Origin: a virus
Strand: one strand, 5' to 3'
Length of the DNA stretch: 19,288 nt
Virus genome (UHGV): UHGV-1843802
A program made the translations under genes and the position numbers. Position 1 is the stretch's first letter, and each line of letters starts with the position of its first letter. The notes below the pieces were generated by a model that did not search any database, was not told the DNA's origin, and was given only the letters and a program-made list of their open reading frames with translations. Below, piece by piece: positions 261 to 14,915 of this stretch.

Positions 261-583
261 TTTTTTGCACGCCCGTATTCAACGGCTTCTTTAAGGAGTT
301 CATTTTCCATCGTTTTTTTGCCGAGCAGGCGCTGGAGTTCTTTAATCTGCTTCATGGCAGCAGCAAGTTCAGAGGCAGGAACGATCTGCTCTCCTGCGGC
401 CACAGCAGTAAGACTTCCCTCCTGGTATTGCTTGCGCCAGAGAAATAACTGGCTGGCTGCCACACCGTGTTGCCGGGCAACAAGGGAGACCGTCATTCCC
501 GGTTCAAAACTCTGCTGAACAATAGCGATCTTTTCCTGTGTAGTACGCCGTCTGCGTTTCTCCGGTCCTAAGACATCAATCAT
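218..583 (-). CDS. insC: IS2 transposase OrfA (InsC), helix-turn-helix DNA-binding subunit
   Basis: The ATG at 583 (rc of 581-583) gives a 121-aa protein, [24 protein letters not shown]...[18 protein letters not shown], matching recalled InsC. The ORF track begins further upstream at a non-ATG codon, which I do not accept. Confidence 0.9.
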
Positions 584-674
584 CTGCTCTCCAATGACTA
601 GTCTAAAAACTAGTATTAAGACTATCACTTATTTAAGTGATATTGGTTGTCTGGAGATTCATGGGGCCAGTCTA

Positions 675-1296
675 ACTTGACTCCTAGTTGTTCTGTAGGT
701 TTATATGCCAATGAATAGTGCTTACTCTTGTCTCTGGACATTCTAAATAATGGGTTATATGTCCATTTTTCTTCTACGCCATCTGTAATAACATAAACAT
801 CCAGGCTAGAGACTTCTTTTGTTAACTCTCTGGAAAGCAACAATGTCAGAAATAAAGTTTCCTTCTCAATATCAAATGTAACGCTAACAGCTTCATGCTG
901 TTTAGTTTCTACGCCAGAAACAGTTCCTCCAGCAGGAATTACAACACTGTTAATAATTGCCAAAGGTGTTTGGTCATTGGCAAGCAATTCAGCCCCGGCT
1001 GGTAACGTAATATCCCGATCAGTTTTATTGGTTATAGACGTTGTTCCGTATGAAGCACTAACAAATCGCCCTACGTAGCTACGGTCTTCAGCAACCGCTA
1101 AAATACTTGAGCGGCGCGTAGCCGTTGAAATAAGTCCCTCAGTGAGGCCGCGGCTTGCAAATGTACGGGCAATATAAATAAGCTGTGATCCGAATATAGC
1201 GTGCATCTGCACAAACTGACTATTTACAAATCGTGACCACCATGTGTTTTCATTTAACTTGGCATTAAATTTGTCCAGTAATTCTGTAATCGTCAC
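675..1296 (-). pseudogene. Phage virion gene (baseplate-like, function not established) truncated at its 3' end by the IS2 insertion
   Basis: The ORF (ATG at 1296, overlapping the upstream stop in an ATGA arrangement) runs straight into the IS2 terminal repeat at 674. The last 16 codons of the track ORF ([16 protein letters not shown]) are encoded by IS2 DNA, so the native C-terminus is missing. Position after the tape-measure-like gene suggests a baseplate component. Confidence 0.6.
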
Positions 1297-1667
1297 GCGC
1301 CCACCCCACTTGATTTCTGCATAACAATATCCATGCTCCCACCTTTCGCATAAAAACTAATTAATAAAGAATCTTCAGAAATTGATGTGCAACGAATCCC
1401 CTGCACATCCAAACCTGGCAAATCTTGTCGTAGTTTTTTCATCATTCTCCCTTCAATAGCCACTTCAACTATGTGCGAAGTTTCAGAGCCGAATGGTTCA
1501 TGCTTAAATTCTTCCATTGGATTCCCCCAAGAGGGTAAACCATAAACACTCCCTTCAGGGGTTCGTAACCACTCGTCAAGTCGGGCCATCCATGCTGCGG
1601 TACTTCCTTCTGCAATAATGACACCGCTCTCATTCGTTTGAAGTCTTGCGTCTATTTCATAAAGCAT
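1293..1667 (-). CDS. Hypothetical phage virion protein, 124 aa (possibly a small baseplate component by position)
   Basis: ATG at 1667 with a GAGGA ribosome-binding site about 10 nt upstream on the minus strand. It starts 6 nt after the tape-measure stop and overlaps the next gene by 4 nt, indicating an operon. No motif I can assign. Confidence 0.5.
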   Translation of the reverse strand: MLYEIDARLQTNESGVIIAEGSTAAWMARLDEWLRTPEGSVYGLPSWGNPMEEFKHEPFGSETSHIVEVAIEGRMMKKLRQDLPGLDVQGIRCTSISEDSLLISFYAKGGSMDIVMQKSSGVGA

Positions 1668-1672
1668 CTGTA

Positions 1673-4600
1673 TTAATCCTCAAGCAGAGCATCCAGCGAC
1701 GGGTCATTAATAGTTGTGCTAGCACGTGGTCGCGGTTGCGGCTGCGATGTTTTGACAACCTTATCCGGATCGCCTTTTGTATTGTTCTTGTTCACATTCA
1801 GAAGATCGTTCAGGATAGAGCAGATGTTATCCAGCGCCTTCAACATAGCAGGATCGTTATTTATAGTGTCAGTAGTTAATGGTTGTCTTATTCCGCTTCG
1901 TGCGAGATCTGTTACAGTAGGAAGCTGTGGTGGCAAAGCAAGAAAAGGTTCTTGCACGGCTGACGCAGAGCCAAATATGGCATTATTGGCTTCGTTTGAT
2001 ATACCTCTAATGCTATCTGCGGTTTGTTGAATACCATTATTCAGCCAACTACCGGCGCTCCTGGTAAGCGGGCTAATAGCCCTGGCAATTGTTGAGTTCT
2101 GCCCAGTAGCCTGATAAACCAAATCATTAACAATGCCTGTGCCATCTACCCCACCAATAAGTTGTGAAACGTTATCGCCAATTGCAGGTAACACAGCAGA
2201 GCTAATACGTTTCAGACCTGTTAATGACGAGTCAAACAAAGAGCCAAGCACCCCCTTATCTTCACCATCAATTACCTTGTATCCATTGTCATAAACTGGA
2301 ATCCCCCTTGAGTTTACAGAGATTTTTTCACTCTCTCTTGCCGAAGAAACACCGGAGAGAAGATCCACTGAAGGCATATCGCGTTCAGCTTTTGGTCTTT
2401 TTTGTAAAGCGTCTCTTATATCAGTTACCTGGCTTGCTTTTTGAAATCCAAAAGATTTACCGGTTAAGCTGGATATCTTTTCAGTAAGAGCCTGATCCAT
2501 TCCTTTCGCTTTTTCGGAAAGCGAAGATATAGAACCAAACGAAGTCGCCGACGCAAAATCCTTAATCAGGCCAAGGCTTGTACCAGCAAGGCTGGTAGCC
2601 GCACCTCCAAATAAATTACCTACCCCGCTGTCATTTATAGCGATTAATCTCTCAAGCAGACTTGATGGCGAGCCAGTATTAACATCTACATTCTCTGGAT
2701 TAATCGGTTGCGATTGATTGCCTGTTTTTTGTGGCTTTTTGACTGTCTGAGCATGTTGTGCAACCTCAATTGGCTGTTGTGTTGCTGTCGGAACGGCATC
2801 CAAAACTGGTTGAGCTGGAGATTTTCCATTAGCATATTTTACCTTGCGACCAACACTATATTGCGAATCGCGGGCAATTAGCTGACCACCATTTTCTTTC
2901 TGAATTTTATTAATCCGCGCCAATGTTTCGTCAGAGAATTGTCCCTCCCATCGACCAGTGTTTGTGTTAAATGCCCCAAGAGCATTCTTTATGAACTCAT
3001 TGTTAACCGCCGGGTTTCCACCTTCTTTCGTCGCTATTGCACGAACTAATTGCGTCATAACTTCTGGGTTGCTGACGTCTATTTTTTCATTAGGCGAGAC
3101 GCCAAGATATTTGCTGACGTTATCAATATATTGATTAGTATTGTTCTCCTTTGGGGGTGCCCATTTGGAAATAATACTGGATACCGTCTGTAGCTTCTGA
3201 TACCCAGCAGCGGCGCTGGTGCCGTTGTAATAGCTTGACACCTGGTTTGCCAGCGCCCTGATCCCTTCTTCAGGCGTGTTAAATCGCGCAAAACGTTGTT
3301 CACCTTTTGCATTTGGTGCTTCCAGCGTCGCCCCTTCCTGATTAGCGAAAACAAGGTTGCCGAGGTTATTATTCCGGTAATTGCGGTTTTTAGCGTTGCT
3401 GCCACCAATATTCAGATCCGCTGCAATGGTGTTGCTGGTAGGGGCATTAAATTCAGCCGGGGAAGTATACCCGTGCTCACCAACACCATCTTCACCATCA
3501 CGCCCGCCTTGTAGCTGCTCACCTAAAGAATGAATCGCATCGACAGTTTTTTTGGTGCCGTCTTCAACAGCTTTTTTTACTTGTTTTGTGTTTTCGTCAG
3601 TGGATAAAAATGTATCCTTAAGGCTACCAAAAACAGATTTGGTGATATCTACCGCGCCGTTAACACCACGAGCAATATCTCCGGTATCAAAATTCTGAAG
3701 TTTTTCACCTGCTCTTTCAAATCCTAGCGCAGAAATTCCTTTCCCTATCAAGTTTGTTGCGCCCGACACCAAGCCCCCCATATCGAGCACATTAGCTGTT
3801 GCGTAAGCCGTTTTTTGCTGTTCGGATACAGCATCATCGTCACTTAAACCAAAGGCTGCCTTTTGCGCCTCTGTATCTGTGTAACCATCTATGGCGTCAT
3901 ATCCAGCCATTGCCAGCGAACCGATGATAGGGACCGCTCTTGCCGCTGTGGATGCTGCTGATTTAACTCCTATTTTTTCAGCACTTTTGAGGGCTACAGA
4001 TTCAGTTTTTTTCTTTGCAATGGCTTCGCCGGTTTTAATGGTGGCATCTTCAGCCACAACACCAGCTGACTTCACGGCCTTAGCAGTATTTTTTGTTTCC
4101 TTTGCAATCCCCTTTGATGTATCGCTGATAGTGCTTACATCTTTGGGTTTGCTGATCTTATTTTTAACTACTTTTGCTGCTCCGACACCAGTGCCAGCTG
4201 CAGCACTACCGGCAGCAACTTTTTCGCCAACGGAGAGTGCTTTTTTCCCAAGATTGCGGCCTTTCCTTTTCGATTTATTCCGTTTATTTTTTCCCGTTTG
4301 ATCACCAATATTGATTTTATTTCTTCTGCTTGCTCGATTTTTCCAGAGATCACTTAAGCCGAACTTATTTCCAGAAGACACTGATTTCCGAAGCTTAACT
4401 ATCTCGTCAGAAACATTTTCCAGACCATCAATTATTTTGTTGTCATTGGTCTGAAGGATTTTGGTTTGCTCTTCTACTGCTTGTGCGGATTTTGTCTCAA
4501 CAGCGTTATTAAACGCTTTTGCAGATGTTGCTTTTTGAGAATTCACCGCCGCCGGATAAGTAATTACTGGTGATATTGCTTTCGAGGTTGATGTTTCTTT

Positions 4601-5455
4601 TTTCCCCTTTTCTACCCATTCTTTAAGAGATTCTGCTTTACCTGTGATCTCTTTAGTTATGTCGTACATGCCACGAGCCGCCATCCATAACGGCCCACCA
4701 GCACCGACACCAGCTGCATTTGTTAAAGACTCTTCACTGGAAGACTGATTGCCATCTACCCCCATAATGGAACCTAGCTTTCTGAGAAAGCCAGCTTGTA
4801 ATTTTGCGTCGGCTTTACATGCGTTCTGCAGTTCTTTTTTTCTGGCTACATCCTCATTGCTTTTCTGGGATACAAAACGTCCATTACTATCCCGCAGCGG
4901 GCCTTTTAGACTTTGGGGGGGTTGTGGTTCAAGAGGGGCTGAATTAGCAGCTACCGGTATAAAACCTTCTGATTTTCGGATGGTCTGACGTGATTGCACG
5001 GAGCGAACACTTTCTGGTGTGTTCGTTGCAACGATAGCGCGGTCCACGGTTTGGTTTATCGGTGCCCTTTCCTTTTTAGCAGGGAGACGTTTTTTATATG
5101 GGTTAGTTTGGACATCTCTAACGCTATCAGATGTACTTTGCTCGTAGTCTTTACGCCTGCGTGATAGTCTGTTGCTAACTCTGCCTTGCCTTTCGTCCTG
5201 TTGAGTTATGGTGCTTGCCCCAGAAAGAATGGCGTCTTTTACCTCAGCAAGAGCTTTTAGTTCGTTTGTGCTCGCCTCCTGAATAGCGTCAATTATTGCG
5301 ATACGGTCTTTATTCTCTTTCAAAATAACCTCTCTTTTACCAGCGCGATCAACGTTTCCCGGCTTGAGCTTTGTATTTTTCTTCCAGGGCTTTTGACATA
5401 TGGAGTGCTCGCCATTGCGGTAATTGTTCAACGTCGCTAACGGGCTGATATCCAT
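1673..5455 (-). CDS. Tail tape-measure-like protein, 1260 aa
   Basis: Uninterrupted 3.8-kb ORF with tape-measure composition: long Ala/Gly/Lys/Ser-rich helical low-complexity stretches and hydrophobic Gly-rich segments (AVPIIGSLAMAGYDAIDGY, GGLVSGATNLIGKGISALG). It lies between tail and baseplate-like genes. ATG at 5455; no clear ribosome-binding site, lying 14 nt after the upstream stop. Confidence 0.65.
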   Translation of the reverse strand: MDISPLATLNNYRNGEHSICQKPWKKNTKLKPGNVDRAGKREVILKENKDRIAIIDAIQEASTNELKALAEVKDAILSGASTITQQDERQGRVSNRLSRRRKDYEQSTSDSVRDVQTNPYKKRLPAKKERAPINQTVDRAIVATNTPESVRSVQSRQTIRKSEGFIPVAANSAPLEPQPPQSLKGPLRDSNGRFVSQKSNEDVARKKELQNACKADAKLQAGFLRKLGSIMGVDGNQSSSEESLTNAAGVGAGGPLWMAARGMYDITKEITGKAESLKEWVEKGKKETSTSKAISPVITYPAAVNSQKATSAKAFNNAVETKSAQAVEEQTKILQTNDNKIIDGLENVSDEIVKLRKSVSSGNKFGLSDLWKNRASRRNKINIGDQTGKNKRNKSKRKGRNLGKKALSVGEKVAAGSAAAGTGVGAAKVVKNKISKPKDVSTISDTSKGIAKETKNTAKAVKSAGVVAEDATIKTGEAIAKKKTESVALKSAEKIGVKSAASTAARAVPIIGSLAMAGYDAIDGYTDTEAQKAAFGLSDDDAVSEQQKTAYATANVLDMGGLVSGATNLIGKGISALGFERAGEKLQNFDTGDIARGVNGAVDITKSVFGSLKDTFLSTDENTKQVKKAVEDGTKKTVDAIHSLGEQLQGGRDGEDGVGEHGYTSPAEFNAPTSNTIAADLNIGGSNAKNRNYRNNNLGNLVFANQEGATLEAPNAKGEQRFARFNTPEEGIRALANQVSSYYNGTSAAAGYQKLQTVSSIISKWAPPKENNTNQYIDNVSKYLGVSPNEKIDVSNPEVMTQLVRAIATKEGGNPAVNNEFIKNALGAFNTNTGRWEGQFSDETLARINKIQKENGGQLIARDSQYSVGRKVKYANGKSPAQPVLDAVPTATQQPIEVAQHAQTVKKPQKTGNQSQPINPENVDVNTGSPSSLLERLIAINDSGVGNLFGGAATSLAGTSLGLIKDFASATSFGSISSLSEKAKGMDQALTEKISSLTGKSFGFQKASQVTDIRDALQKRPKAERDMPSVDLLSGVSSARESEKISVNSRGIPVYDNGYKVIDGEDKGVLGSLFDSSLTGLKRISSAVLPAIGDNVSQLIGGVDGTGIVNDLVYQATGQNSTIARAISPLTRSAGSWLNNGIQQTADSIRGISNEANNAIFGSASAVQEPFLALPPQLPTVTDLARSGIRQPLTTDTINNDPAMLKALDNICSILNDLLNVNKNNTKGDPDKVVKTSQPQPRPRASTTINDPSLDALLED

Positions 5456-5469
5456 ATAGAGTCAGGTTG

Positions 5470-6291
5470 TTAATAATGGTTAGCCATCCATTCAGATCTA
5501 ATTGATGGGATAAACTCTCTATTGAGAAAGGGGACGTACAGTGTGGTTGTCACATCTGCACCCTCCTTAGCGTTTTTGCAATGTTGCGGAGGCAGGATCA
5601 GTCGGCTTGAGCCTCTCTCAATAGACATTTTCAGGCCGTGGCGTAGGTCTTTTTGCATAAGCTGTATGCGAGCCACAAGCGGTGTAAACTCGGTTTCAAG
5701 CGCCATGCTTTCAATAATGTCAAAGCGTCGGTTAGCGGCCTGCGTGAAGTCCTCCGGATCGTCTTCAAGCGCCGTGCATAAAGCGAGTTCAGCAATCCGC
5801 ATCCGTGCCACGCCAGCACTGTATTCGGGGCTTTTCATATCAGGAAGTGACGCTCGCATTCGTTCAAGGAGTTCCGCGCCTTTCCCGGTTAATGGTTTAA
5901 GTATCCAGTCAGTTGGTACTCCATTTACTGGTACGTTGGTTTTCACGTAAGGAGGTACAGTGAGTATTTCTACTGTTTGGGCCAGGTCGCTCAGGTTAAT
6001 ATCTGCATGATGCGTATTACCGCAGTGACTGCACTCATAGGAGTAGGTCATTACTGCATCGGGGCGCGAATTAACAAATATCCACCAAAGAGCAGTTCTG
6101 CGATCCTGAACTGTCCAGTTAGCACTGTCGTTAATTTCACCATCCTGCATAGAGTTAAGGTACTCTGTAGTAGTTGCCTCATCTTCTGCCGGGTTCAGGT
6201 CAGAATATTTCAGCGCATCCTTCACGGTAGGGGCGTGGAACTGAATTTCTGTCTCAGGACGGGAAGGCAATGGGAATTTTGGAATGTTCAA
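5470..6291 (-). CDS. Hypothetical phage protein, 273 aa, with a Cys/His cluster (YECSHCGNTHH); first gene of the operon that contains the tape-measure-like gene
   Basis: TTG start at 6291 preceded by a strong ribosome-binding site (GGAGG, 5-nt spacer) on the minus strand; the next in-frame Met is 47 codons downstream. Function unknown. Confidence 0.5.
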   Translation of the reverse strand: MNIPKFPLPSRPETEIQFHAPTVKDALKYSDLNPAEDEATTTEYLNSMQDGEINDSANWTVQDRRTALWWIFVNSRPDAVMTYSYECSHCGNTHHADINLSDLAQTVEILTVPPYVKTNVPVNGVPTDWILKPLTGKGAELLERMRASLPDMKSPEYSAGVARMRIAELALCTALEDDPEDFTQAANRRFDIIESMALETEFTPLVARIQLMQKDLRHGLKMSIERGSSRLILPPQHCKNAKEGADVTTTLYVPFLNREFIPSIRSEWMANHY

Positions 6292-6395
6292 TTATTCCTC
6301 CGAAAAGCAGGTATCTGTTCATTTTCCAGAGGATAGGGAGTGTGTGATTTGCGATGGGGATTGAATGAAGATCTTTGCCGGTCGAGAAGCGATTA

Positions 6396-6537
6396 TTGAG
6401 GGTGATTTTTACACCTTAAGTGACGCTACTCACATATCCACAGAGTATTTTTATAAACCTTTTTCCATTTTTAATCCTTTTTAGATCCTTTTTAGGCGTC
6501 GCTGGAGCCAGTAGTGGCGCGGGCTGTAGAGGAGGCT
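6396..6537 (+). promoter_or_regulatory. Replication origin core: one inverted iteron, a DnaA-box-like 9-mer, and an AT-rich region likely to be the unwinding element
   Basis: Inverted iteron TTGAGGGTGATTTTTACACC at 6396-6415. ATATCCACA at 6434-6442 matches the DnaA box TTATCCACA at 8 of 9 positions. The AT-rich stretch 6445-6500 (tttttataaacctttttccatttttaatcctttttagatcctttttagg) contains repeated CCTTTTT motifs and a GATC. Confidence 0.6.
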
Positions 6538-6658
6538 GGTGTAAGAATTGCCCTCAATTAAATACGATCGGTGTAATATTTGCCCTCAAAAGGTGTAAGA
6601 TTTGCCCTCAAAAGGTGTAGTAATTGCCCTCAAAGTGATGTAAAAATTGCCCTCACCA
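6538..6658 (+). repeat. Five direct iterons (about 20 bp, mostly 22-bp spacing) immediately upstream of the initiator gene
   Basis: GGTGTAAGAATTGCCCTCAA (6538-6557), GGTGTAATATTTGCCCTCAA (6570-6589), GGTGTAAGATTTGCCCTCAA (6592-6611), GGTGTAGTAATTGCCCTCAA (6614-6633), and a degenerate GTGATGTAAAAATTGCCCTCAC (about 6635-6658). Consensus GGTGTAAnAATTGCCCTCAA. Confidence 0.85.
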
Positions 6659-6679
6659 TTCGAAGGATCACACAGGGTT

Positions 6680-7435
6680 ATGAACAGAGCGGAATTAACA
6701 GCAAAAGCCGTCAGCCTGATTGAGTCAGCGACACCTATTAGTCGTAGTTTGGCACAAGCCAATGAGATCACGGAGGCTGCTTATCACCTGACTCGCGACC
6801 AAAAGCGACTGTTGTTTATTGTGGTGGGAAGACTTCGCTATGCTTCTAAGGATGGCGTTCTTGGTTCAGGTGCCTGTGAGTTGACGGTCAACGAATATGC
6901 AGAGATGTATAATTTGCCCTCTGCTGAAGCCAGCAAGGATATTCGTAAGGCCATTTCAGGGCTTAGCGAGAAGAAAGTTACGATATATAACCCTGATGAA
7001 TCGACCGAATCAGAAGACAGTTATGAGTCTTATCCTTGGATGATTAAGGATGCCTATTCACCACGGCGCGGGACTTACATTATTCATCTTAATCCATATC
7101 TCATGCCGTTTTTTACTCTGCTTGATAAGAGATTCACAAGGCTGAATTTTACCGAAGTATCTCGCCTTACAAATCCTTATTCTATGCGGCTTTATGAGTC
7201 CTTATGCCAGTACAGGAAGGATGATGGAAGCGGCTTTGCCATACTTGGCGTCGAATGGATGCGGGAGCGTTATGGGTTACCAAAAAGCTATCAGCGGTAT
7301 GCCGAATTTAAGAGAAGTTTTTTAACGAAGGCTGTAGCAGAGATTGAAAAAAATACAAAAATGAAAATAGTCTTCTCAGAGGTGACGGAAGGCGGCAAAG
7401 TTACCAGGATAAAATTTACTTATCAGCAGTCTTAA
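6680..7435 (+). CDS. repE: Iteron-binding replication initiator, 251 aa, resembling F-plasmid RepE (RepFIA)
   Basis: ATG at 6680; the track's upstream TTG at 6647 lies inside the fifth iteron. Motifs shared with recalled F RepE: EAAYHLTRDQKRLLF, SAEASKDIRKA, YESYPWMIKDAYSPRRGTYIIHLNPYLMPFF, NPYSMRLYESLCQYRKDDGSG. Same length as RepE and flanked by iterons on both sides. Confidence 0.85.
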   Translation: MNRAELTAKAVSLIESATPISRSLAQANEITEAAYHLTRDQKRLLFIVVGRLRYASKDGVLGSGACELTVNEYAEMYNLPSAEASKDIRKAISGLSEKKVTIYNPDESTESEDSYESYPWMIKDAYSPRRGTYIIHLNPYLMPFFTLLDKRFTRLNFTEVSRLTNPYSMRLYESLCQYRKDDGSGFAILGVEWMRERYGLPKSYQRYAEFKRSFLTKAVAEIEKNTKMKIVFSEVTEGGKVTRIKFTYQQS

Positions 7436-7770
7436 GGGCAATTTTTACACCCTTCTCAAGGTGTAGAATTTGCCCTTAACGATCGGCAATTGAGGGCAAT
7501 TTTTACATCTTAATTGCATGTATCTTGTTATTAGCAAGTTGTGTTTTTATATAACGTATTGATATGTAAGGGATTATGTAAAAATCACCCTCAACCAATA
7601 TCGTGCGTATCGTGCATTCTTATTGCGCTTTTTTATTATCATTCACTGTGTTAACTGATTGATATTATTGAAATGTGTAAAGAATGCCTTCATTACAGAT
7701 GAATTGATGATGTAAAAAATGCCCTCAAAATTGCGCTACCTTCCCTACCCGCTATCGTTGAGGGCGTGGG
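7436..7770. repeat. Downstream iteron cluster in mixed orientations (copy-number control locus, analogous to incC), in AT-rich non-coding DNA
   Basis: GGGCAATTTTTACACC (inverted, about 7436-7451), GGTGTAGAATTTGCCCTTAA (7460-7479), TTGAGGGCAATTTTTACATC (inverted, 7490-7509), GTAAAAATCACCCTCAA (about 7578-7594), a degenerate TGTAAAGAATGCCTTCA (about 7676-7692), GATGTAAAAAATGCCCTCAA (about 7708-7727), and a half site GTTGAGGGCG (about 7757-7766). No ORF of any length. Confidence 0.75.
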
Positions 7771-7817
7771 TGCTGACGGGAAATGAGCAACCCTCCAGCA
7801 CACATAATTAAAGCTAT

Positions 7818-8525
7818 TCAGAATTTGATCACTCCACTGATAGCCCCCTTTAACGCACTTGTAGCCATGCCAGCGGCACCGTTGACCAAAGCAGAAACAC
7901 CTGAGCCTGCGGATGTGTATTTCTGGAAAGTGATTGGGTATGACAAGAACTCTGACACCTGATCACGTGAGCGAGTGATTTCCCCAAGTTGTGTAGGAAA
8001 TACGCGCATTTCTTCTTCCAGTTCTTTTCCGCCGTCCTGAGTCACCCGGTAGACACGGATTTTCATCAGATATTCAGGAGGAAGGTTTATTGTTCCATCA
8101 GGGTTTGTTACACGAGAACGACGCTCTTTGAACCAGTCCATGATCTTGCCATCTTCGGTATCCCTCACGGTCATAGTGACCGGTCCGGCGCTAACATAGG
8201 TTGGCTTGCTGAATTCTACGCTGCCGATCACCTTGCTTTCTGTCTCGATGTTCCCACTGCTGTAGGTGATATCCTTCACGAACATATCGAAGCCGTTCAG
8301 ACCATCCACTTCAACGGTCCACTGCCACCCCTGGGCGTAACGGATACGCATAGCAGCAGCAACAATATTTTTCCCGTAGGCAATATCGCTACTGTAATTC
8401 CCGCTTACCCCGCCGCCTGATATGGCTTTATCAAGAATGTCGCTAATGAGGTTGCTGGTGAATGATTTCGTGTTAAATGACAATGCGGTGGTCAACGTTC
8501 TACCAACGCTGCTGAAAATACTCAC
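7818..8525 (-). CDS. Hypothetical phage virion or tail protein, 235 aa
   Basis: GTG start at 8525 with a GGAGG ribosome-binding site 7 nt upstream on the minus strand. Last gene of the tail block before the replicon. No assignable motif. Confidence 0.5.
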   Translation of the reverse strand: MSIFSSVGRTLTTALSFNTKSFTSNLISDILDKAISGGGVSGNYSSDIAYGKNIVAAAMRIRYAQGWQWTVEVDGLNGFDMFVKDITYSSGNIETESKVIGSVEFSKPTYVSAGPVTMTVRDTEDGKIMDWFKERRSRVTNPDGTINLPPEYLMKIRVYRVTQDGGKELEEEMRVFPTQLGEITRSRDQVSEFLSYPITFQKYTSAGSGVSALVNGAAGMATSALKGAISGVIKF

Positions 8526-8540
8526 TCTGCGCCTCCAGCG

Positions 8541-9092
8541 TTAAAAAATGGTAGCCCCCGGAATAATGGCCCGGTTTGAGGACATTTTTTCCTCAATTTC
8601 CTGCACGCGGGCATATAGCGTGGCTTCATCGGGCAGATCGGAGTAGTCAAATTTCCCGTCGATGGACGCTCTACGCTGCCTGGCGACATTTCTTACGTTG
8701 ATAAGCGCCTCCAGATATTCCTCCAGCATTCCAATGATTGCAGGAGGCACTTGCCATTCATCCAGCTTTCTGTCGCGTAGATTAACCAGATACAGCATTC
8801 GAAAAGGCCAGCGTTCTGAACCTGTTAGCTCTAATTCAATAAATCCGGATAATTCATCCGAATAGACCAACAAGCCGTTGTTGTCGGTAACATGAACCAG
8901 AGAGAGATAATCTTCTGGCAACGGGATTGCAGTACCACCAGCTCTTTCAAGTTTTAACGTTTTCACTACCCCTGCCCTGTCCTGATACGTGGTCAGAGCT
9001 TTGATCAGGAAGGCTTTCAACGTTTCTTCTTCACGCACAAGTAGTGGATTAAATCGCTCTTTAACGCTTTCTAATAATTCAATTGGTGTCAT
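8541..9092 (-). CDS. Hypothetical phage virion or tail protein, 183 aa
   Basis: ATG at 9092. Tightly packed in the minus-strand operon, 15 nt upstream of the next gene. Confidence 0.5.
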   Translation of the reverse strand: MTPIELLESVKERFNPLLVREEETLKAFLIKALTTYQDRAGVVKTLKLERAGGTAIPLPEDYLSLVHVTDNNGLLVYSDELSGFIELELTGSERWPFRMLYLVNLRDRKLDEWQVPPAIIGMLEEYLEALINVRNVARQRRASIDGKFDYSDLPDEATLYARVQEIEEKMSSNRAIIPGATIF

Positions 9093-9146
9093 CGTTGCCT
9101 ACAACTCAATAACAAGGATGTTCCCGCCACAAGGGCGGGATAGGGA

Positions 9147-9638
9147 TTATTCCGCCCAGTTGTAAACAATGCGCAGGGAAGGTTTAACGACCGCCGTTAC
9201 GTCTTCGGATGAGAAGTCCACGGCGTCGGAATACACTTTGCAATGAGAATATGTGCGGATCAGACCTTTATGGTTACCGCTATTCGATTCAGCCGCCGCC
9301 TGTAAGGTAATTTCCAGATATTCTTTTCCGTATACCATCTGTTTTACAGCGGCGAGAACTGCGCCTTCGATAGTTTCCGCGCATGTGACCTGAAATTCAC
9401 CAGAGTTGCGTAATGGTCCGTGCTGGTTGAATTTCATGCCACCAGGGGCGTAATCCTCCACATCTTCGCGTGTCATTTCTGGTAACTGAGCTGTACGAAC
9501 TAGTACAGACAGATGTTCGTAACCCTTAATGGTCATCCAATATTCAGAACCAATAAGTTTTTCGCCTGCAGCCAGGTTTTTATTAAACCGGGATTTTAGA
9601 AAGGCCATATCGGCTTTTGTATTTGCAAAACCGGACAT
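9147..9638 (-). CDS. Hypothetical phage tail protein, 163 aa (size and position fit a tail tube protein; not verified)
   Basis: ATG at 9638 with a strong ribosome-binding site (AGGAG, about 7 nt spacer). Follows the sheath-like gene by three genes. Confidence 0.5.
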   Translation of the reverse strand: MSGFANTKADMAFLKSRFNKNLAAGEKLIGSEYWMTIKGYEHLSVLVRTAQLPEMTREDVEDYAPGGMKFNQHGPLRNSGEFQVTCAETIEGAVLAAVKQMVYGKEYLEITLQAAAESNSGNHKGLIRTYSHCKVYSDAVDFSSEDVTAVVKPSLRIVYNWAE

Positions 9639-9646
9639 AAATACTC

Positions 9647-10219
9647 CTACACAAAAACAGATGAGATATTGCTACGGTTGATCGATGTATTACCGCTGCA
9701 TTGCAGGGTTACCGTGTTATGAGTGAAATAGCCTTCCGGTGTGCGCGGGGCGTCCAGTTGGTAACTCACGCTTTTGATAACAACGTCGGTAAGGGCTATG
9801 TTCCTACCTATGTTTAACGTTACTGTCTCCGGGCGACGACCGAATGGCGCTACATTGTTCAGTTCCGGCGATTCCATCTTCAGCAATGCTGTAATGGCTG
9901 CGTTCACTTCAAGTTGCGCGTTCGTTGTCGCCATGAAATCAATTACCAGATTAAATTCAGGCGGTTGCTGACCTTCCCAAACAAGCATTGAGTTGAAGAG
10001 GGTTTTTGTTGTTACGCCGGTTGCGGTCTGAAGTGTATCTGCAAGAGAGCCAGCCGCAGCGCTAATACCGCCAAGTAAACCTCCTACTGACTGGTTTTCA
10101 AATGGTGATTGCCACATTGATGACAGTTCTGCGGTAGATCCTTCACCGATATAACCGACGACCATATCCTCTGAAGAGAGGATATAAACCTTCATTAACG
10201 GACTTATTCCGTCAGGCAT
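9647..10219 (-). CDS. Hypothetical phage virion protein, about 190 aa; start uncertain
   Basis: The ORF is open from a TTG at 10237. The first ATG is at 10219 and another at 10195; none has a convincing ribosome-binding site. The reading frame itself is clear and the stop is 9647-9649. Confidence 0.45.
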   Translation of the reverse strand: MPDGISPLMKVYILSSEDMVVGYIGEGSTAELSSMWQSPFENQSVGGLLGGISAAAGSLADTLQTATGVTTKTLFNSMLVWEGQQPPEFNLVIDFMATTNAQLEVNAAITALLKMESPELNNVAPFGRRPETVTLNIGRNIALTDVVIKSVSYQLDAPRTPEGYFTHNTVTLQCSGNTSINRSNISSVFV

Positions 10220-10286
10220 TATCGCGCCGCAAATCAAACGCTATTTCTCCCAGGTAGAGGCCACCTTTGCAGGCGGCCTATGTCAC

Positions 10287-11021
10287 TTACAAACCGCGTT
10301 TTTTGCGAATGCGCATTGATTTTTTGCGGTTGATATTCGCTACGGATGTATGTGCTTTGCGGCGTGCTTTTTTCAGCGCCTGTTTTTGCAATGACGTCAT
10401 GCGGCGAGGACGCGGGCGTTTACGGATGATGGTAACCTTGCCATCACGAACCACTTTTTTACGTACCGCTTCCAGCATTGCGCTATCACCACCAGCAACG
10501 GTGTAAATGGCAATAGCTGTTTCCATCATGTCGGTGTCGCTTTCGGAAAGAGCGTCATAAACACGTTCGGCAGCTGAGTCATCTTCATCGTCGATCATTT
10601 CGGTTACATCGTCCTGATCAGCGCCAAGCGCGACAGCTGCATCAGCAAGAGCTGCGAGAGCATCGTTATAAGCATCGATTTGCTCATCGGTGAAATCGGT
10701 GTCTTCATCGATATCAGCCAGGCCAGCCATAGTGATTGCTAATGCATCAAATGAGTCAGCCTCCGGATCACCATCTTCAACCCAACCAGCAAGCATGGAC
10801 GCTGCCAGGCTGCGCATATCACCTTGTGCACGGGATTCAACCGCTTCCATCATCGCGGTTTCAATGTCGTCTTTGGGCTTTGGTTGAGTGTCCTTTCCTT
10901 TCTGTCCTGCGCTTTCCAGCATGGCGTTATCATTATTGTCCTGCGTGGATTTATCACCGCTTTCAAAGCAGCCAGAACCGAAAATCGCACGCATAAAAGG
11001 ATCAGCAGTATAATTTTTCAT
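10287..11021 (-). CDS. Highly acidic protein with a strongly basic Arg/Lys-rich C-terminal tail, 244 aa; function unknown
   Basis: ATG at 11021 with a GGAGAGAGG ribosome-binding site about 8 nt upstream; the track's upstream GTG at 11042 is less likely. The N-terminal two-thirds are rich in Asp/Glu/Ala (DGDPEADSFDALAITMAGLADIDEDTDFTDEQIDAYNDALAALADAAVALGADQDDVTEMIDDEDDSAAE). The last 50 residues are basic (RKRPRPRRMTSLQKQALKKARRKAHTSVANINRKKSMRIRKKRGL). Confidence 0.55.
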   Translation of the reverse strand: MKNYTADPFMRAIFGSGCFESGDKSTQDNNDNAMLESAGQKGKDTQPKPKDDIETAMMEAVESRAQGDMRSLAASMLAGWVEDGDPEADSFDALAITMAGLADIDEDTDFTDEQIDAYNDALAALADAAVALGADQDDVTEMIDDEDDSAAERVYDALSESDTDMMETAIAIYTVAGGDSAMLEAVRKKVVRDGKVTIIRKRPRPRRMTSLQKQALKKARRKAHTSVANINRKKSMRIRKKRGL

Positions 11022-11065
11022 ATTCAAACCTCTCTCCCCCACATCATTTAGCGGGGGGTTATAAA

Positions 11066-12724
11066 TCAGCGCATCAGAATTGGCTTACCGACGATTCGGC
11101 GAGCTGTACCGGTCGGACAAACAGACCAGGACACTTCCCACAGATCGATGTCCTTTTGGACAACCTGAACAACATATGGATCTTCGCCCTGGGACTTGTC
11201 ACGTGGAGTAACCAGCGCACCGGCTGCAACGTAACGGTCAAGCAATTCAGTCATTGCTTTCATTAGCGTTTCTTTGGTAATGCCATCCGGTTCGTGCTTA
11301 ATCGCCTGAGCTACTTCATAGAAATCTCTGGCGATGGCGTTCATCAAGGAAGACACATGCTGGAATCGCAGATAGTTGTTTTTGCTGTAAGTTGTTAAAG
11401 AGTCGTCAATGTAAACGGACCCGTCAGCAGCAACTGAAACTGGATTAATGCGCGCAAGAACGAACGCTTCACGATCAACTGCACCGATATTTGGAATTCG
11501 GGCAATGTTCTGTCGATCAATAATCGCGCGTGATATACCTGCCGGTGCGTAATGCCAACCACCAACATCCGGTACCAGCGCTACCCCTTTTGCTTTTGCT
11601 ACGAATGCGTCGCAACTAATGCCATAGACGACATTCATCCCAGTGAAGGTATCTCGGCAGGAGAGCGGGAAGTAGTAACGGCTTGGTTGATGTGAGCCGC
11701 CAAAACTATGGCTTTTCGCTTCTGAAATAGCGTTTTCAGGTGTCTGGTTGCCCTTCAGGTCATAGAACATGTCTACGCGAACGTCTTCAGCCAGCTTTTT
11801 GATTGCGGCTAAGGCGGATGCGTCATAACAGCCCAGTGACAGCAATGCGGTGTAATTAACCTCTGAAGCTTCGAGAACCTTTAATGCTTCCAGATAGTCT
11901 TCAGTGTCAATTTCGGACAGATCTCCATCAGTACCACCTTCAAAAGCTACATCCTCAAAAATGAGTTGAGCAGCGGATGCTTCTGCATTATCTGCCAGCA
12001 CGGCACCAATGCGAGTGGACTGGCTTTCAAGCAGTGTCGGAATCCATGCTGGTTGGCCCATGTCGTTAGTGCCTTCTGGATTGAAAGACACTTGGTGGCT
12101 TTCCAGCACCTCAATGGACCCATCGGTTTGTTTTTCTTTCAGCGTCAGCGTAAAGAGTTCGCTTTCTTCATCATCGCGAGTTAGTGATAACGTGCGATTT
12201 TGAGATGCATCACCATCTTTGATGAAGAATAATGCCTTCTCTTCACCTTTAATCTGGGGCGTCTCTTTGGGTGTGAAGGACACTGATTGAGTCGTTGCAG
12301 TTGAAGCAACACCAACGCTTAATGTGTCACCTGGATTTACTGTGGTTTCAGTAGGTTCAACGGAAAGTTCTTTGCTCGCCTTTGCCGCTTTTGCTTTGCC
12401 CACAACGGAAACAGAAATACCCGGCACCTTCATGTCTTTAGCGCAAACTCGAACGACATATCCGGAGCCGCCTTTTACTGCACGCTCCACGTGGCGGTAT
12501 GGTTCAAATGCCGCTCCCAGACGAGGGTGAATCGGTGAACCTAATACGCTTTGATAAGTCGTATCGTCAACTTTCAGTACCTTACCCGGTGCGCCACGAC
12601 GCGATATTACAAGCCCAGCAAAGACGGATGCGCCACCGCTGGTATTGGTGAGGGTAGCGTCAGCATTTACTGACATTACAGCAACGCCAGCTGCCTGCCC
12701 TACCGAAAAACTAATCTTATTCAT
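11066..12724 (-). CDS. Putative contractile tail sheath protein, 552 aa
   Basis: ATG at 12724. Size and position (first gene after the capsid and decoration genes and an attenuator hairpin) fit a sheath. The C-terminal third (...GVALVPDVGGWHYAPAGISRAIIDRQNIARIPNIGAVDREAFVLARINPVSVAADGSVYIDDSLTTYSKNNYLRFQHVSSLMNAIARDFYEVAQAI...) has the spacing pattern I associate with sheath C-terminal domains such as P2 FI. Unverified. Confidence 0.5.
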   Translation of the reverse strand: MNKISFSVGQAAGVAVMSVNADATLTNTSGGASVFAGLVISRRGAPGKVLKVDDTTYQSVLGSPIHPRLGAAFEPYRHVERAVKGGSGYVVRVCAKDMKVPGISVSVVGKAKAAKASKELSVEPTETTVNPGDTLSVGVASTATTQSVSFTPKETPQIKGEEKALFFIKDGDASQNRTLSLTRDDEESELFTLTLKEKQTDGSIEVLESHQVSFNPEGTNDMGQPAWIPTLLESQSTRIGAVLADNAEASAAQLIFEDVAFEGGTDGDLSEIDTEDYLEALKVLEASEVNYTALLSLGCYDASALAAIKKLAEDVRVDMFYDLKGNQTPENAISEAKSHSFGGSHQPSRYYFPLSCRDTFTGMNVVYGISCDAFVAKAKGVALVPDVGGWHYAPAGISRAIIDRQNIARIPNIGAVDREAFVLARINPVSVAADGSVYIDDSLTTYSKNNYLRFQHVSSLMNAIARDFYEVAQAIKHEPDGITKETLMKAMTELLDRYVAAGALVTPRDKSQGEDPYVVQVVQKDIDLWEVSWSVCPTGTARRIVGKPILMR

Positions 12725-12761
12725 GCTGGTTCTTATCCTCTAAAGCGAGAGAACGAGGCAA

Positions 12762-12786
12762 GGCTACCCACGGTTAATGGGTAGCC
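12762..12786 (-). terminator. Perfect 9-bp GC-rich stem-loop just after the Ig-like gene stop; candidate attenuator or partial terminator
   Basis: GGCTACCCA (12762-12770), loop cggttaa, TGGGTAGCC (12778-12786). On the minus-strand RNA the stem is followed by UUGCCUCGUUCUCUCGCUUU, a pyrimidine and U-rich tract. Confidence 0.4.
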
Positions 12787-12791
12787 TCTGA

Positions 12792-13070
12792 TCAGGATTC
12801 GCTTACCGTGAAGTTGTCGCCTACGGTTACTTCTTTCGTAGTTGGTTCAACACTGACGGCGCTTACGCTTTTAGGTGCCTCCCTAACAGTGACCGTGCAC
12901 TGTGCGGTTTTATTGCCGTCATTAGTTTTGATTGTCAGCACTGCCTGCCCTGCCTTAAGAGCGGTACATGTAGTGCCATCAACCTGGACAATTTCAGGGT
13001 GATCGGACTCAACAGTGAAAGATTTGTCTGTTGCGTCAGATGGCGAGATAGTTACTTGAATGTTTGCCAT
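12792..13070 (-). CDS. Ig-like (Big_2-type) domain protein, 92 aa; likely capsid decoration or accessory virion protein
   Basis: ATG at 13070 with a GGAG ribosome-binding site 7 nt upstream. The alternating beta-strand pattern VTISPSDATDKSFTVESDHPEIVQVDGTTCTALKAGQAVLTIKTNDGNKTAQCTVTV is typical of bacterial Ig-like group 2 domains. Confidence 0.6.
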   Translation of the reverse strand: MANIQVTISPSDATDKSFTVESDHPEIVQVDGTTCTALKAGQAVLTIKTNDGNKTAQCTVTVREAPKSVSAVSVEPTTKEVTVGDNFTVSES

Positions 13071-13081
13071 TCTTTTCTCCT

Positions 13082-13110
13082 GAACACCCCTTATTCAGGG
13101 GCGTGTTTTT
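13082..13110. other. Stem-loop (about 9 bp with one bulge) followed by a T5 run on the plus strand; on the coding minus strand it is a stem-loop without a U tract
   Basis: GAACACCCC, loop ttattca, GGGGcGTGTT, then TTTTT at 13106-13110. Its geometry is that of an intrinsic terminator for plus-strand (antisense) transcription, or a stabilising or processing hairpin in the late mRNA. Confidence 0.35.
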
Positions 13111-13113
13111 GCC

Positions 13114-13218
13114 TTACTTCTGCTTTGTTTTTTTCTGTGCCTTTGAAGTGTTCGCGGCGATAGTTTCACCTTCATCTACGTCAAGTGACGTTGGTGATAC
13201 CGACACGTTCGCCACCAT
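13114..13218 (-). other. 34-codon ORF in the -1 frame, overlapping the capsid-like gene stop; candidate -1 frameshift extension of that protein
   Basis: The capsid-like gene ends ...GAA AAA AAG TGA. The heptamer A AAA AAG is the classic -1 slippery site. The -1 frame continues VMVANVSVSPTSLDVDEGETIAANTSKAQKKTKQK to a TAA at 13114-13116. Confidence 0.25.
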
Positions 13219-14915
13219 CACTTTTTTTCGTTAACCTTGCCTGACAGCATGTCGATAGCACCTTCTTTGGCACGAGTCAGACGCAGGCGGGTGAAGTAGT
13301 TTTCACCGTTGCGAGGATGTACTTCGTTGATGGCACTGCCCCAGAGAGTGGTACGGTTAACGAGAGACGGATTGGTTTCGTGCACGTAAGGGATTGCAGG
13401 GACTGCATCACCAGCAATCAGACCGGCTTTACCGATGCCTTCGCCACGCCCATAGAAGAAGATGTCATCCAGCCCGAAGTCATATCCCTGTGCCTGGAAT
13501 TGCTCACAGACAGGTTGCGGCACTTCGTAAATACGAATCGTGCCAAACAGGGTGCCGATGTACTGTACATACGGCGACTGAACGTAACCTGGTGCGATCT
13601 GGAAGTGCTGTGGAGGCAGAGAGCGCAGGAAGTTCGCGGCGTCACCACCAGCAAAGCCGCCACGAATACCCGTTGTCAGGGTGCGATTTGCCATTTCCTG
13701 AGACAGAGCGTTTACTACGTGACGCAGGAGGCCGACCCAGGACTCATAGTTTTGAGCTTCCGGCAGAGCCACATCAAATTCACGACCATAAACGGTATGG
13801 AATACTAGGGTGCGCAGACGCATGATGTCAGTCTCATGGGAGATCCAGTTACGCATCGCGGAGAACTGAAGTGCCGCTAATTCAAGGCCGTGCTCACGGC
13901 TTAAATCGGATGCGGACATTACCGTGTGTTCGGAGGCAATTACGTACTGGGACGGACGAACTTCGTACTTACGCATAGCCTGGTTGATCACCGGAATCAG
14001 GCTTGGATTGCGCTCGATGTTAATTTCGACCTGAACAGCAATTTCAGTACCTTCTGGCGGAGCCTGGGTAAATGTAATGTCAATGACACCAGTGTCATAG
14101 GCAACTTTGGCAGTCGCTGAGAAAGCATTACCTTTGCTGTCTTTAGCATTGAAATAAAGGTTGCCATCGCCGTCGTCAACTTTGGACGGTTTGCGGTTGA
14201 TCAGCAGTTTGTTATAACCAGCGCGAAGCGGGCAGGATTGTCCCTCAAAATTTTGGATGTCGAACTGGAAGGTTTTGGTGCTGCCATCCCCTTTAGTGGA
14301 AAGGGTATACAGGCGCTTCATTTGAGAATAAACACCAGCTGACTGCATATTCAGTTCGTCACCTTGTTTGAAGGTGCCGAATTTTGTGCCTGCTACGTTG
14401 ACCAGTTCATAAATATTTGACTCGTCACGATCACAAGGAACAAAAGTACAGGCATCACTGGTAGCAGCGCCCAGAGAGGCAGGCAGAATTAGAGCAGCAT
14501 ATTGAGCAACTTTCATTACGCCGTCAGAGCTACGCATTGATTGCGCGACAGACTCAAACATTGCCTTACCCGTGCCTTCATGGGTATCACTGGCACATTC
14601 AGTCATCAGGCGTTCAAGAGCCATGTGTGCGTTCGCCAGGATGTCACTTGCCGGGTAATGACCATGTTGACGTTTATACTCATGCAGAGACATAGCCCAC
14701 CCACCAGTGATCTGACGAGCGACCTCTGGATTTACGCCTTCAAACATAGGCACTTTCTGGATTGCTTTATCCAGGTTTTCCATCATTACTGCCTGGTCAG
14801 CAATCATGTTGCCTGCTGCATCGGTGGTCGGATCGACGGTCATAGCCATGACGCTTGCCGCCCGATTCATAATCTCGCGCTCGCGATCACGAGCTGGCTG
14901 AATGTTTTTATTCAC
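13218..14915 (-). CDS. Putative major capsid protein, 565 aa (large structural protein, first gene of the late operon in this window)
   Basis: 1.7-kb ORF with a GTG start at 14915 (AGGG about 8 nt upstream); the first in-frame ATG is at 14870. It is followed by a possible frameshift extension, a stem-loop, an Ig-like gene and an attenuator hairpin, the layout of a highly expressed capsid and decoration pair. The alternative is another major structural protein. Confidence 0.5.
   Translation of the reverse strand: MNKNIQPARDREREIMNRAASVMAMTVDPTTDAAGNMIADQAVMMENLDKAIQKVPMFEGVNPEVARQITGGWAMSLHEYKRQHGHYPASDILANAHMALERLMTECASDTHEGTGKAMFESVAQSMRSSDGVMKVAQYAALILPASLGAATSDACTFVPCDRDESNIYELVNVAGTKFGTFKQGDELNMQSAGVYSQMKRLYTLSTKGDGSTKTFQFDIQNFEGQSCPLRAGYNKLLINRKPSKVDDGDGNLYFNAKDSKGNAFSATAKVAYDTGVIDITFTQAPPEGTEIAVQVEINIERNPSLIPVINQAMRKYEVRPSQYVIASEHTVMSASDLSREHGLELAALQFSAMRNWISHETDIMRLRTLVFHTVYGREFDVALPEAQNYESWVGLLRHVVNALSQEMANRTLTTGIRGGFAGGDAANFLRSLPPQHFQIAPGYVQSPYVQYIGTLFGTIRIYEVPQPVCEQFQAQGYDFGLDDIFFYGRGEGIGKAGLIAGDAVPAIPYVHETNPSLVNRTTLWGSAINEVHPRNGENYFTRLRLTRAKEGAIDMLSGKVNEKK

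Follow-up and report, generated by a model that had tools for sequence, protein, structure and literature searches.

The region at positions 6397-7765 of the analyzed DNA (hereafter the window, a stretch of 19,288 nucleotides from a virus genome) is very probably the plasmid-prophage replicon of a D6-like phage-plasmid. It would be a low-copy replicon of the theta type, controlled by iterons and homologous to ori2/repE/incC of the F plasmid. The replicon is already known: it is annotated in phage D6 and was described as "repB with iterons" in the D6-like plasmid prophage pYU39_89. [quoted passage not shown]

Identity with the phage D6 replicon

Positions 674-19288 of the window showed 99.0% DNA identity to Escherichia phage D6, a P1-like phage-plasmid. 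For positions 6300-7800 the identity was 99.5%, and the D6 counterpart was NC_050154, 45558-46887. The initiator was 100% identical in amino acid sequence to D6 orf42, which the D6 record labels a putative plasmid replication initiator. All 13 iteron sites of the window were present in D6, where the replicon likewise lies between pmgB and tub. With orf42 and its flanking repeats near-identical and the location the same, the replicon belongs to the D6-type plasmid-prophage replicons (MOB-suite rep_cluster_1704). The D6 and window copies showed no difference of substance. Unlike D6, the element in the window has its bplA gene broken by an IS2 fragment (window 1-677).

Apart from orf42, the annotation of the 91-kb D6 genome lists the lytic repL but no rep gene of the plasmid type. 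In PLSDB, the replicon was found in 111 plasmids, mostly of about 90 kb, and 108 of these were non-mobilizable. Among them are truncated prophage variants that persist as plasmids (PMC6799933).

Elements of the replicon

Iterons were searched over the whole window with the consensus TGTAAnAATTGCCCTCA, allowing up to 3 mismatches, with 200 shuffled sequences as a control. All 13 matches lay within 6397-7727. The shuffled sequences had a mean of 0.21 matches, and none of the 200 reached 13. Iterons elsewhere might have suggested coupling to par or repL; none was found in the rest of the 91-kb D6 genome, where 13 of 13 fell within 1.3 kb. The elements were as follows.

6397-6413, minus strand: lone reverse iteron TGTAAAAATCACCCTCA, left of the DnaA box and the AT-rich region
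6434-6442, plus strand: DnaA-box-like site ATATCCACA, one mismatch to TTATCCACA
6445-6500: AT-rich stretch with ATATTTTTATAA-like and TTTTTAGATC blocks, common to F ori2
6540-6655, plus strand: five direct origin iterons, starting at 6540, 6572, 6594, 6616 and 6639
6639-6647, plus strand: weak candidate extended -10 element (TGtAAAAAT) in iteron 5
6680-7435, plus strand: rep, encoding an iteron-type initiator of 251 amino acids with WH1 and WH2 domains
6906-6922, plus strand: iteron-like site TGTATAATTTGCCCTCT inside rep, codons 75-80 (EMYNLP)
7433-7449 (minus), 7462-7478 (plus) and 7491-7507 (minus): three alternating iterons, the first overlapping the rep stop codon; putative start of an incC-like control cluster
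7552-7564, minus strand: perfect IHF consensus TATCAATACGTTA, a predicted site about 12 nt before the forward iteron at 7577
7577-7593, plus strand: forward iteron TGTAAAAATCACCCTCA
7612-7628, plus strand: terminator-like hairpin followed by a T run; candidate rep terminator by consensus match only
7652-7664, minus strand: perfect IHF consensus TATCAATCAGTTA, a predicted site about 11 nt before the forward iteron at 7676
7676-7692 (degenerate) and 7711-7727, plus strand: two forward iterons
7727-7765, minus strand: putative terminator-like hairpin GCCCUCAA...UUGAGGGC followed by AUUUUUU, on the minus-strand transcript leaving tub

The DnaA-box-like site, the AT-rich region, the five direct iterons and the downstream cluster had all been named in the preliminary description, and the positions it gave were confirmed. 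The site inside rep was absent from its list. Together, the iterons adjoining the gene, the AT-rich region and the DnaA box form an origin of the Rep_3 type, with the binding of proteins to it predicted.

As a single site with one mismatch, the DnaA-box-like ATATCCACA was not significant by itself. We gave it weight because it aligned with the second DnaA box of F ori2; it was also invariant among the variants compared. The AT-rich stretch (33% GC in 6400-6499) was nearly invariant among these variants and is presumably the DNA-unwinding element. The origin iterons were spaced 32, 22, 22 and 23 bp from start to start, similar to the 21, 33 and 22 bp of F ori2.

The initiator gene

The product of rep is a member of the Rep_3 family (Pfam PF01051 and PF21205) with both winged-helix domains: Rep3_N was matched with 102.7 bits (cut-off 22.4; 2.9e-29) and Rep3_C with 58.3 bits (cut-off 21.1; 9e-16). 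A relationship to F RepE had been proposed from the sequence, and pairwise comparison bore it out, with 50% identity over 228 amino acids (E 2e-86). The RepE structure (PDB 1REP) was also matched (E 1.4e-73). When the domains were compared separately, identity to RepE was 51% in WH1 and 41% in WH2, and the WH1 segment SAEASKDIR was identical in the two proteins.

Between lineage L004 and the window, rep was 89.9% identical in nucleotides and 99.6% in amino acids, with 76 nucleotide differences and one amino acid difference. By this sequence comparison, rep is under strong purifying selection. The codons of the iteron-like site at 6906-6922 formed the six-codon window of rep with the highest third-position conservation. 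This site was kept in the D6 cluster and in lineages L014, L016 and L017; it was degenerate in L012 and in F.

No sigma-70 promoter came up in a consensus scan of the DNA upstream of rep. A relaxed scan gave a 9/12 match in the AT-rich region, with a -10 element lacking its final T, and the weak extended -10 in iteron 5, with nothing else promoter-like near the gene. From iteron 5 to the rep ATG there are only 24 nt.

Conservation among D6-like elements

The number, positions and orientations of the iterons were the same in five D6-like plasmids at 84-90% DNA identity, that is, at a divergence of up to 16%. Upstream of rep, 96% of the columns within iterons were invariant, against 67% outside. 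Downstream, the fractions were 84% and 19%. The reverse iteron at 6397-6413 was invariant in six D6-like variants, and lineage L014 had three reverse copies at the same relative place. Relatives of Rep with 57-78% identity were accompanied by the same iteron type and layout.

Position in the genome

The plus-strand rep lies between two minus-strand genes, pmgB (5470-6291) and tub (7818-8525), which agrees with the earlier remark that the replicon is oriented oppositely to the late structural genes around it. In P1, pmgB and tub are adjacent, 14 bp apart, so the replicon can be seen as a module placed between them. Relatives of the replicon, 71-78% identical, were found at different sites in other P1/D6-like elements. 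The unit is a transplantable module, which in the D6 lineage is located between pmgB and tub. The preliminary description had suggested mosaic assembly, for which the relatives at other positions speak. It had also placed the partition genes about 10 kb away and assigned them to ParM rather than SopAB. They were indeed of the ParM/StbA type, with ParM and ParR-like genes that begin at 17956, roughly 10.5 kb from the replicon.

The P1-type late promoter AAGTGACTT-N4-TAnAAT had no match in the window. A different box, AAATCACA, is present at 6343-6350 and may be a separate late promoter for pmgB-sit.

Proposed control and the inverted iterons downstream of rep

By analogy to RepE, the five phased iterons at 6540-6655 would be occupied by Rep monomers, which would act with host DnaA at 6434-6442 to melt the AT-rich stretch next to them and bring in the host helicase. 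Past the end of rep, the six iterons at 7433-7727 may act like F incC or P1 incA: they would titrate Rep and pair with their counterparts at the origin, through looping or handcuffing, and so hold the copy number down. Handcuffing, a monomer/dimer switch and chaperone dependence would all be carried over from F and P1. In F, there are four oriS iterons, inverted repeats bound by dimers serve autoregulation, and incC controls copy number by looping (PMC13028717). No Rfam family was found in the window, which gave no sign of copy control by an antisense RNA.

The two conserved IHF consensus sites could bend the downstream region and aid the pairing. The window had four matches to the IHF consensus where 0.98 were expected, and the core columns were conserved in the variants. 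F itself does not need IHF (PMC4980987).

Two RNA hairpins can be drawn from the downstream iterons. Those at 7433-7449 and 7462-7478 pair as a 20-bp hairpin at the 3' end of the rep mRNA. The hairpin at 7727-7765 consists of a partial reverse iteron (7757-7765) and the iteron at 7711-7727. The fold of the latter region as a whole was marginally better than that of shuffled sequences (z -1.65), and this part of the region was not conserved in L005 and L008.

A tentative reading, which we consider possible yet doubtful, is that the replicon forms an insulated portable cassette. Its iterons would double as DNA that binds Rep in initiation and copy control and as RNA terminator hairpins, for rep at 7433-7478 and for minus-strand tub at 7727-7765 with its U run, and the AAATCACA late promoter (6343-6350) would restart pmgB-sit transcription. 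If so, a low-copy origin would be tolerated inside a late operon under heavy transcription, the two processes not getting in each other's way, and the presence of related cassettes at different positions in P1/D6-like elements would be accounted for. The intragenic iteron, and the reverse one on the far side of the unwinding region, would then be extra control sites, of which F has none.

The inverted iterons at 7460-7509 had been proposed as a dimer-binding operator; lying downstream of rep, they cannot be an operator of the F type. In a wider form, these iterons, together with 7433-7449, would be bound by a dimer and repress transcription. The three sites do alternate, with their orientation kept in all six variants, and dimers of the RepE family bind inverted repeats (PMC13028717). 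However, the sites begin at the rep stop codon, where direct repression of the rep promoter is impossible. They are full 17-nt iterons spanning 50 bp, whereas the half-sites of F have 8 bp and extend over 25 bp. The first incC iteron of F is at the same place, which suggests that the first site is probably the ordinary start of the cluster. The 20-bp RNA hairpin at 7433-7478 offers another reason for the inversion. We consider the operator improbable. Because of their location downstream of rep, the inverted iterons are more probably sites of copy control and may serve as terminator hairpins, too.

Comparison with F and IncFIA

The F sequence used for comparison was NC_002483, and its iterons were taken directly from the record. 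The two initiators are homologous and equal in length (251 amino acids). The origin DNA could be aligned with ori2, through the DnaA box and the AT-rich stretch with TTTTTAGATC to the iterons, which are about 22 bp apart in both. The order of DnaA box, AT-rich region, origin iterons, rep and second iteron cluster is that of RepFIA, and the first incC iteron of F also abuts the repE stop codon. The idea that the organization mirrors F ori2 therefore held for the order of elements and the alignable DNA. It did not hold for the downstream cluster: F incC has five iterons in one direction, whereas the cluster in the window has mixed orientation and two IHF consensus sites.

There were further differences. 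F has two DnaA boxes and the window one; F has four good origin iterons and a degenerate one, and the window five good ones. The reverse iteron left of the origin and the iteron-like site inside rep are extra in the window, the former without a counterpart in F. In F, sopABC is adjacent, while the window has ParMR 10 kb away instead. The F operator, inverted TGTGACAA half-sites over the repE promoter, has no equivalent in the window: the F operator/promoter segment corresponded to a 38-nt gap in the origin alignment.

The iterons themselves are half shared. As had been noted from the sequence, they have a core in common with F ori2, for which the iteron is TGTGACAAATTGCCCTCA: the 11-nt 3' core AATTGCCCTCA was identical in NC_002483. 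Of the 19-bp F iteron TGTGACAAATTGCCCTCAG, only this 3' AATTGCCCTCA was shared. The 5' half is TGTGAC in F but GGTGTA or GATGTA in the window. Alignment of the iterons to F ori2, a check proposed earlier, thus succeeded for the core only; no site in the window was within 4 mismatches of the 18-nt F iteron. In F, WH2 of RepE contacts GTG / GtCA in the TGTGAC half (PMC4980987).

If the replicon were IncFIA (RepFIA) proper, Rep and RepE would cross-recognize their iterons, and incompatibility between D6-like prophages and F-type plasmids would be expected. The identical AATTGCCCTCA core, the identical SAEASKDIR segment and the common origin architecture and DNA blocks would agree with this. Against it, Rep is only 50% identical to RepE, and it scored 280.6 bits with the RepE equivalog model NCBIfam NF010305, below the cut-off of 342, while F RepE scored 537.8. 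The iteron half contacted by WH2 is the one that differs, and WH2 is less conserved than WH1. MOB-suite types the replicon apart from IncFIA, as rep_cluster_1704. Moreover, plasmid pHX138.33gt_1 holds a complete copy of the D6-type replicon and a complete IncFIA ori2/repE/incC. We consider it very unlikely that the replicon is IncFIA proper. As far as these sequences tell, it is a diverged relative of F ori2 and not an IncFIA/RepE equivalog.

Comparison with P1

The P1 replicon (oriR/repA/incA, IncY) does the same job in a related phage, and its iterons also flank the initiator on both sides. The D6 annotation asks whether orf42 is "similar to P1 repA?"; pairwise BLASTP did not support this (E 0.057). 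The P1 iterons have 19 bp and are unrelated to those of the window, which by iterons and initiator falls outside the IncY RepA replicons. The P1 origin has five GATC sites; a cluster like that of P1 oriR was not found in the window, where just one conserved GATC lies in the AT-rich stretch. The P1 replicon adjoins parAB after gene 23 and is not between pmgB and tub.

One arrangement may be similar. As an operator of inverted half-iterons is missing from the DNA between the iterons and rep, autoregulation, if any, would have to use the origin iterons, with Rep bound beside the promoter or covering it, as for P1 repA. In P1, the repA promoter is annotated inside the origin iterons, and the absence of an operator suggests the same for the window.

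It is extremely improbable that the replicon is only a relic, with repL or an unrecognized origin keeping the plasmid state. In favor of this, the scans upstream of rep gave no convincing promoter. Against it, the rep ORF is intact and shows one amino acid change where the nucleotides diverge by about 10%, and conservation is far higher in the iterons than in the sequence around them. The D6 annotation names no second initiator of the plasmid type, and P1 repL is annotated as a C1-repressed lytic replicon.

Significance

E. coli, Shigella and Salmonella commonly carry D6-like phage-plasmids, and invasive S. Typhimurium ST213 is among the hosts (PMC6799933). The rep gene of these elements is reported to be missing from standard plasmid-typing databases (2025 preprint, 10.1101/2025.09.12.675607). 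The D6-type replicon leaves the current understanding of iteron replicons unchanged. It is a tidy case in which one half of the iteron is fixed and the other has diverged, apparently alongside WH2, the domain with which F RepE reads this half. Its description helps the typing of these elements and the prediction of incompatibility, as a diverged relative of F ori2 with its own iteron specificity and no F-type operator, outside IncFIA.

Replicon region and its carrier

Positions 674-19288 of the window are 99.0% identical to 39835-58447 of Escherichia phage D6 (NC_050154), a P1-like temperate phage whose prophage state is a circular plasmid. The replicon region, 6300-7800, is 99.5% identical to D6 45461-46960 and was found in 111 PLSDB plasmids from E. 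coli, Salmonella and Shigella, the majority of about 90 kb. These carriers have the MOB-suite type rep_cluster_1704, and 108 of the 111 are non-mobilizable. In the D6 record, the initiator ORF is already annotated and its neighbours are labelled pmgB and tub. An F-related iteron replicon inside the late-gene block of this element is known in substance already and is widespread; the fine anatomy of the D6-type replicon may add detail to this knowledge. A 2025 preprint (10.1101/2025.09.12.675607) screened for D6 repB as its marker and pointed out that plasmid-typing databases lack D6.

The element carrying the window is probably a defective prophage surviving as a plasmid. Truncated D6-like variants still persist as plasmids after loss of tail genes (PMC6799933). 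Roughly window positions 1-677 consist of a fragment of IS2. It contains an HTH_Tnp_1 ORF (218-628) and shows 99.6% identity to a transposase region of phage phi456. The fragment breaks the baseplate gene bplA (625-1296, minus strand), and D6 homology runs from 674 on.

Iterons and initiator

Allowing up to three mismatches, the 17-nt iteron TGTAAnAATTGCCCTCA had 13 sites in the window, every one within 6397-7727. Shuffled sequences gave a mean of 0.21 sites, and none of 200 shuffles reached 13. A scan of the whole 91-kb D6 genome matched only these same 13 sites. The region is arranged as follows.

Features of the D6-type replicon in the window
6397-6413, minus strand: lone reverse iteron
6434-6442, plus strand: DnaA-box-like ATATCCACA
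about 6445-6500: AT-rich stretch (33% GC in 6400-6499)
6540-6655, plus strand: five direct iterons, spaced 32, 22, 22 and 23 bp
6680-7435, plus strand: initiator gene rep
6906-6922, plus strand: iteron-like site within rep
7433-7507, minus, plus and minus strand: three iterons in alternating orientation, the first overlapping the rep stop codon
7577, 7676 and 7711, plus strand: three forward iterons
7552-7564 and 7652-7664, minus strand: predicted IHF sites, perfect matches to the consensus WATCAANNNNTTR

The 251-aa Rep has both Rep_3 winged-helix domains. It matched solved structures of RepE, the initiator of plasmid F, with E of about 1e-73, and was 50% identical to F RepE across 228 residues. 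Pairwise comparison with P1 RepA gave no significant similarity. The preliminary description had proposed a RepE-related initiator with iterons on both sides, and both points were confirmed. Against the NCBI RepE equivalog model, Rep scored 280.6 bits (cut-off, 342; F RepE, 537.8), a result that accounts for the generic name "RepB family" assigned by PGAP. In PLSDB, 108 records were at least 95% identical to Rep and one was at 60-80%, while RepE proteins were at about 50%, so that a gap separates its own cluster from RepE.

Comparison with F ori2

The window origin can be aligned with ori2 of F (NC_002483) at the DNA level. ATATCCACA aligns with the second DnaA box of F; ATATTTTTATAA and TTTTTAGATC in the AT-rich stretch, a (G/C)TAGAG(G/A)AGG block ahead of the first iteron, and AATTGCCCTCA in the iterons are common to both. 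The 5′ half of the iteron differs, being GGTGTA or GATGTA in the window but TGTGAC in F, and the 18-nt F iteron had no site in the window at up to four mismatches. GTG and GtCA within this half are contact points of the RepE WH2 domain (reviewed in PMC4980987). Identity between Rep and RepE is lower in WH2 (41%) than in WH1 (51%), where the segment SAEASKDIR is identical. In sequence terms, the weaker conservation of WH2 is consistent with divergence of the iteron half contacted by RepE WH2.

Between its iterons and repE, F has an operator/promoter segment with an inverted pair, TGTGACAA...TTGTCACA, the site of autoregulation by RepE dimers (PMC13028717). This segment is absent from the window: it forms a 38-nt gap in the alignment, and iteron 5 is only 24 nt from the ATG. 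Inverted iterons at 7460-7509 had been suggested as an operator, but they lie downstream of rep. A scan for a sigma-70 promoter for rep found none, and an extended -10 within iteron 5 was the sole candidate in the vicinity. P1 PrepA is annotated as autoregulated via origin iterons. The missing operator and the lone -10 candidate suggest that rep, too, may be autoregulated through the origin iterons.

The downstream sites are in mixed orientation, whereas incC of F has five iterons in one direction. Both predicted IHF sites are in this control cluster, each about 11 nt ahead of a forward iteron. The window has four IHF consensus matches against about one expected, and the core columns of the two sites in the cluster are conserved in the divergent variants. 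IHF is not needed for F replication (PMC4980987); these sites, if used, would be a further difference from F. In the rep mRNA, the inverted pair at 7433-7478 is predicted to fold into a 3′-terminal hairpin of 20 bp (folding of 7430-7660, z = -6.1).

Relation to IncFIA

The D6-like plasmid pHX138.33gt_1 (NZ_CP091837.1) was typed as "IncFIA, rep_cluster_1704". It carries both replicon types:

4479-5806: complete D6-type replicon, with 13 of 13 sites
16319-17455: IncFIA unit with complete F-type ori2/repE/incC, its RepE 95% identical to that of F, adjoining IS1 within the tail-fibre region

Co-residence on one molecule is expected of non-interfering replicons, though it is no proof of compatibility. 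With Rep below the RepE equivalog cut-off and no F iteron in the window, the IncFIA membership implied earlier was not upheld. Of the earlier interpretation, the F-related replicon and the mosaic reading stood, and the operator and IncFIA membership did not.

Conservation among D6-like plasmids

In five D6-like plasmids with a replicon region of 84-90% DNA identity, all 13 sites were kept with unchanged positions and orientations. Invariant columns made up 84% of iteron positions and 19% of the remainder in the intergenic region downstream; upstream, the values were 96% and 67%. Among these variants, rep differed by up to 10% of nucleotides, yet only one to four amino acids changed (89.9% nucleotide and 99.6% amino-acid identity between L004, one of the five, and the window). 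The D6 annotation has no second plasmid-type initiator, just the lytic repL. These sequence comparisons (conserved iterons, a near-constant Rep and its place as sole plasmid-type initiator) argue for a functional replicon.

The iteron-like site within rep (codons 75-80) is kept at the DNA level where Rep is only 57-71% identical. It is the stretch of rep with the highest third-codon-position conservation in a small sample of seven sequences, three of them nearly identical. Its counterpart is degenerate in F and in L012, the locus of a related replicon.

Setting in the late-gene block

The P1 genes pmgB and tub belong to a single operon, with 14 bp between them; its promoter, LPsit, lies upstream of pmgC, and repA-parAB follows gene 23. 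In D6, the 1.5-kb replicon parts pmgB from tub. The 8-mer AAATCACA has four minus-strand copies in the window (6343-6350, 14978-14985, 15033-15040 and 16429-16436) and none on the plus strand; D6 has 17, where about 3.5 would be expected. Of the 17, eight directly precede a late gene or operon (orf16, prt, ddrB, R/S, pmgB, gene 23, gene 7 and mat). Seven of these eight have the layout AAATCACA-N7-(T/C)AnnnT; the copy ahead of gene 7 has GAAAAT after it instead. Two of the positions correspond to P1 LPs and LP23. AAATCACA is probably the D6 counterpart of the P1 Lpa-dependent late-promoter box (AAGTGACTT).

The copy at 6343-6350 (box plus layout, 6330-6350, minus strand) precedes the pmgB start codon by 52 nt, which suggests a separate late promoter for pmgB. 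On the other side, in the minus-strand tub transcript, pairing of a partial iteron (7757-7765) with the iteron at 7711-7727 would give a hairpin, and AUUUUUU follows it. This hairpin might be terminator-like for transcription leaving tub; the fold has z = -1.65, and two of the five variants (L005 and L008) do not conserve this stretch. The replicon seems to be flanked by a possible terminator and a transcription restart.

A partition system at 17956-19288 (plus strand) comprises a ParM gene (StbA_N and ParM C-terminal domain) and then a StbB/ParR-like gene (Plasmid_stab_B). It is beside upfB and upfC, near the parAB-repA location of P1. The D6 record lists a ParA-like fragment just past the window end.

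Relatives of the replicon

A protein search found intermediates between Rep and RepE.

Relatives of the window Rep (identity; context)
P0002: 78%; 87-kb contig with darB-like and ddrB genes, adjoining a higB-type toxin gene, away from tail genes
P0003: 71%; 104-kb contig, flanked by an upfB-like gene and by genes for proteins like D6 capsid (46% identity) and sheath (38%), about where P1 keeps repA
P0004: 63%; contig bearing genes for a SIR2-domain protein and a DUF1173 protein
P0006: 57%; ordinary Nissabacter plasmid

All four have the iteron type (A/G)TGTA(A/G)nAATTGCCCTCA; their origin arrays hold five or six copies at 22-bp spacing, and the downstream cluster starts with an iteron at the stop codon. 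In related replicons at L012 and L016, the downstream cluster is expanded: L012 has three tandem units of about 179 bp (5760-6290), with a reverse and a forward iteron per unit, and L016 has at least 10 reverse iterons 43-45 bp apart (5744-6582). These expansions point to a control locus that changes far more rapidly than the origin array. The occurrence of related Rep/iteron units in differing contexts, at other positions in P1/D6-like elements, supports the mosaic assembly proposed earlier and indicates that the replicon is a module placed at different sites in these elements.
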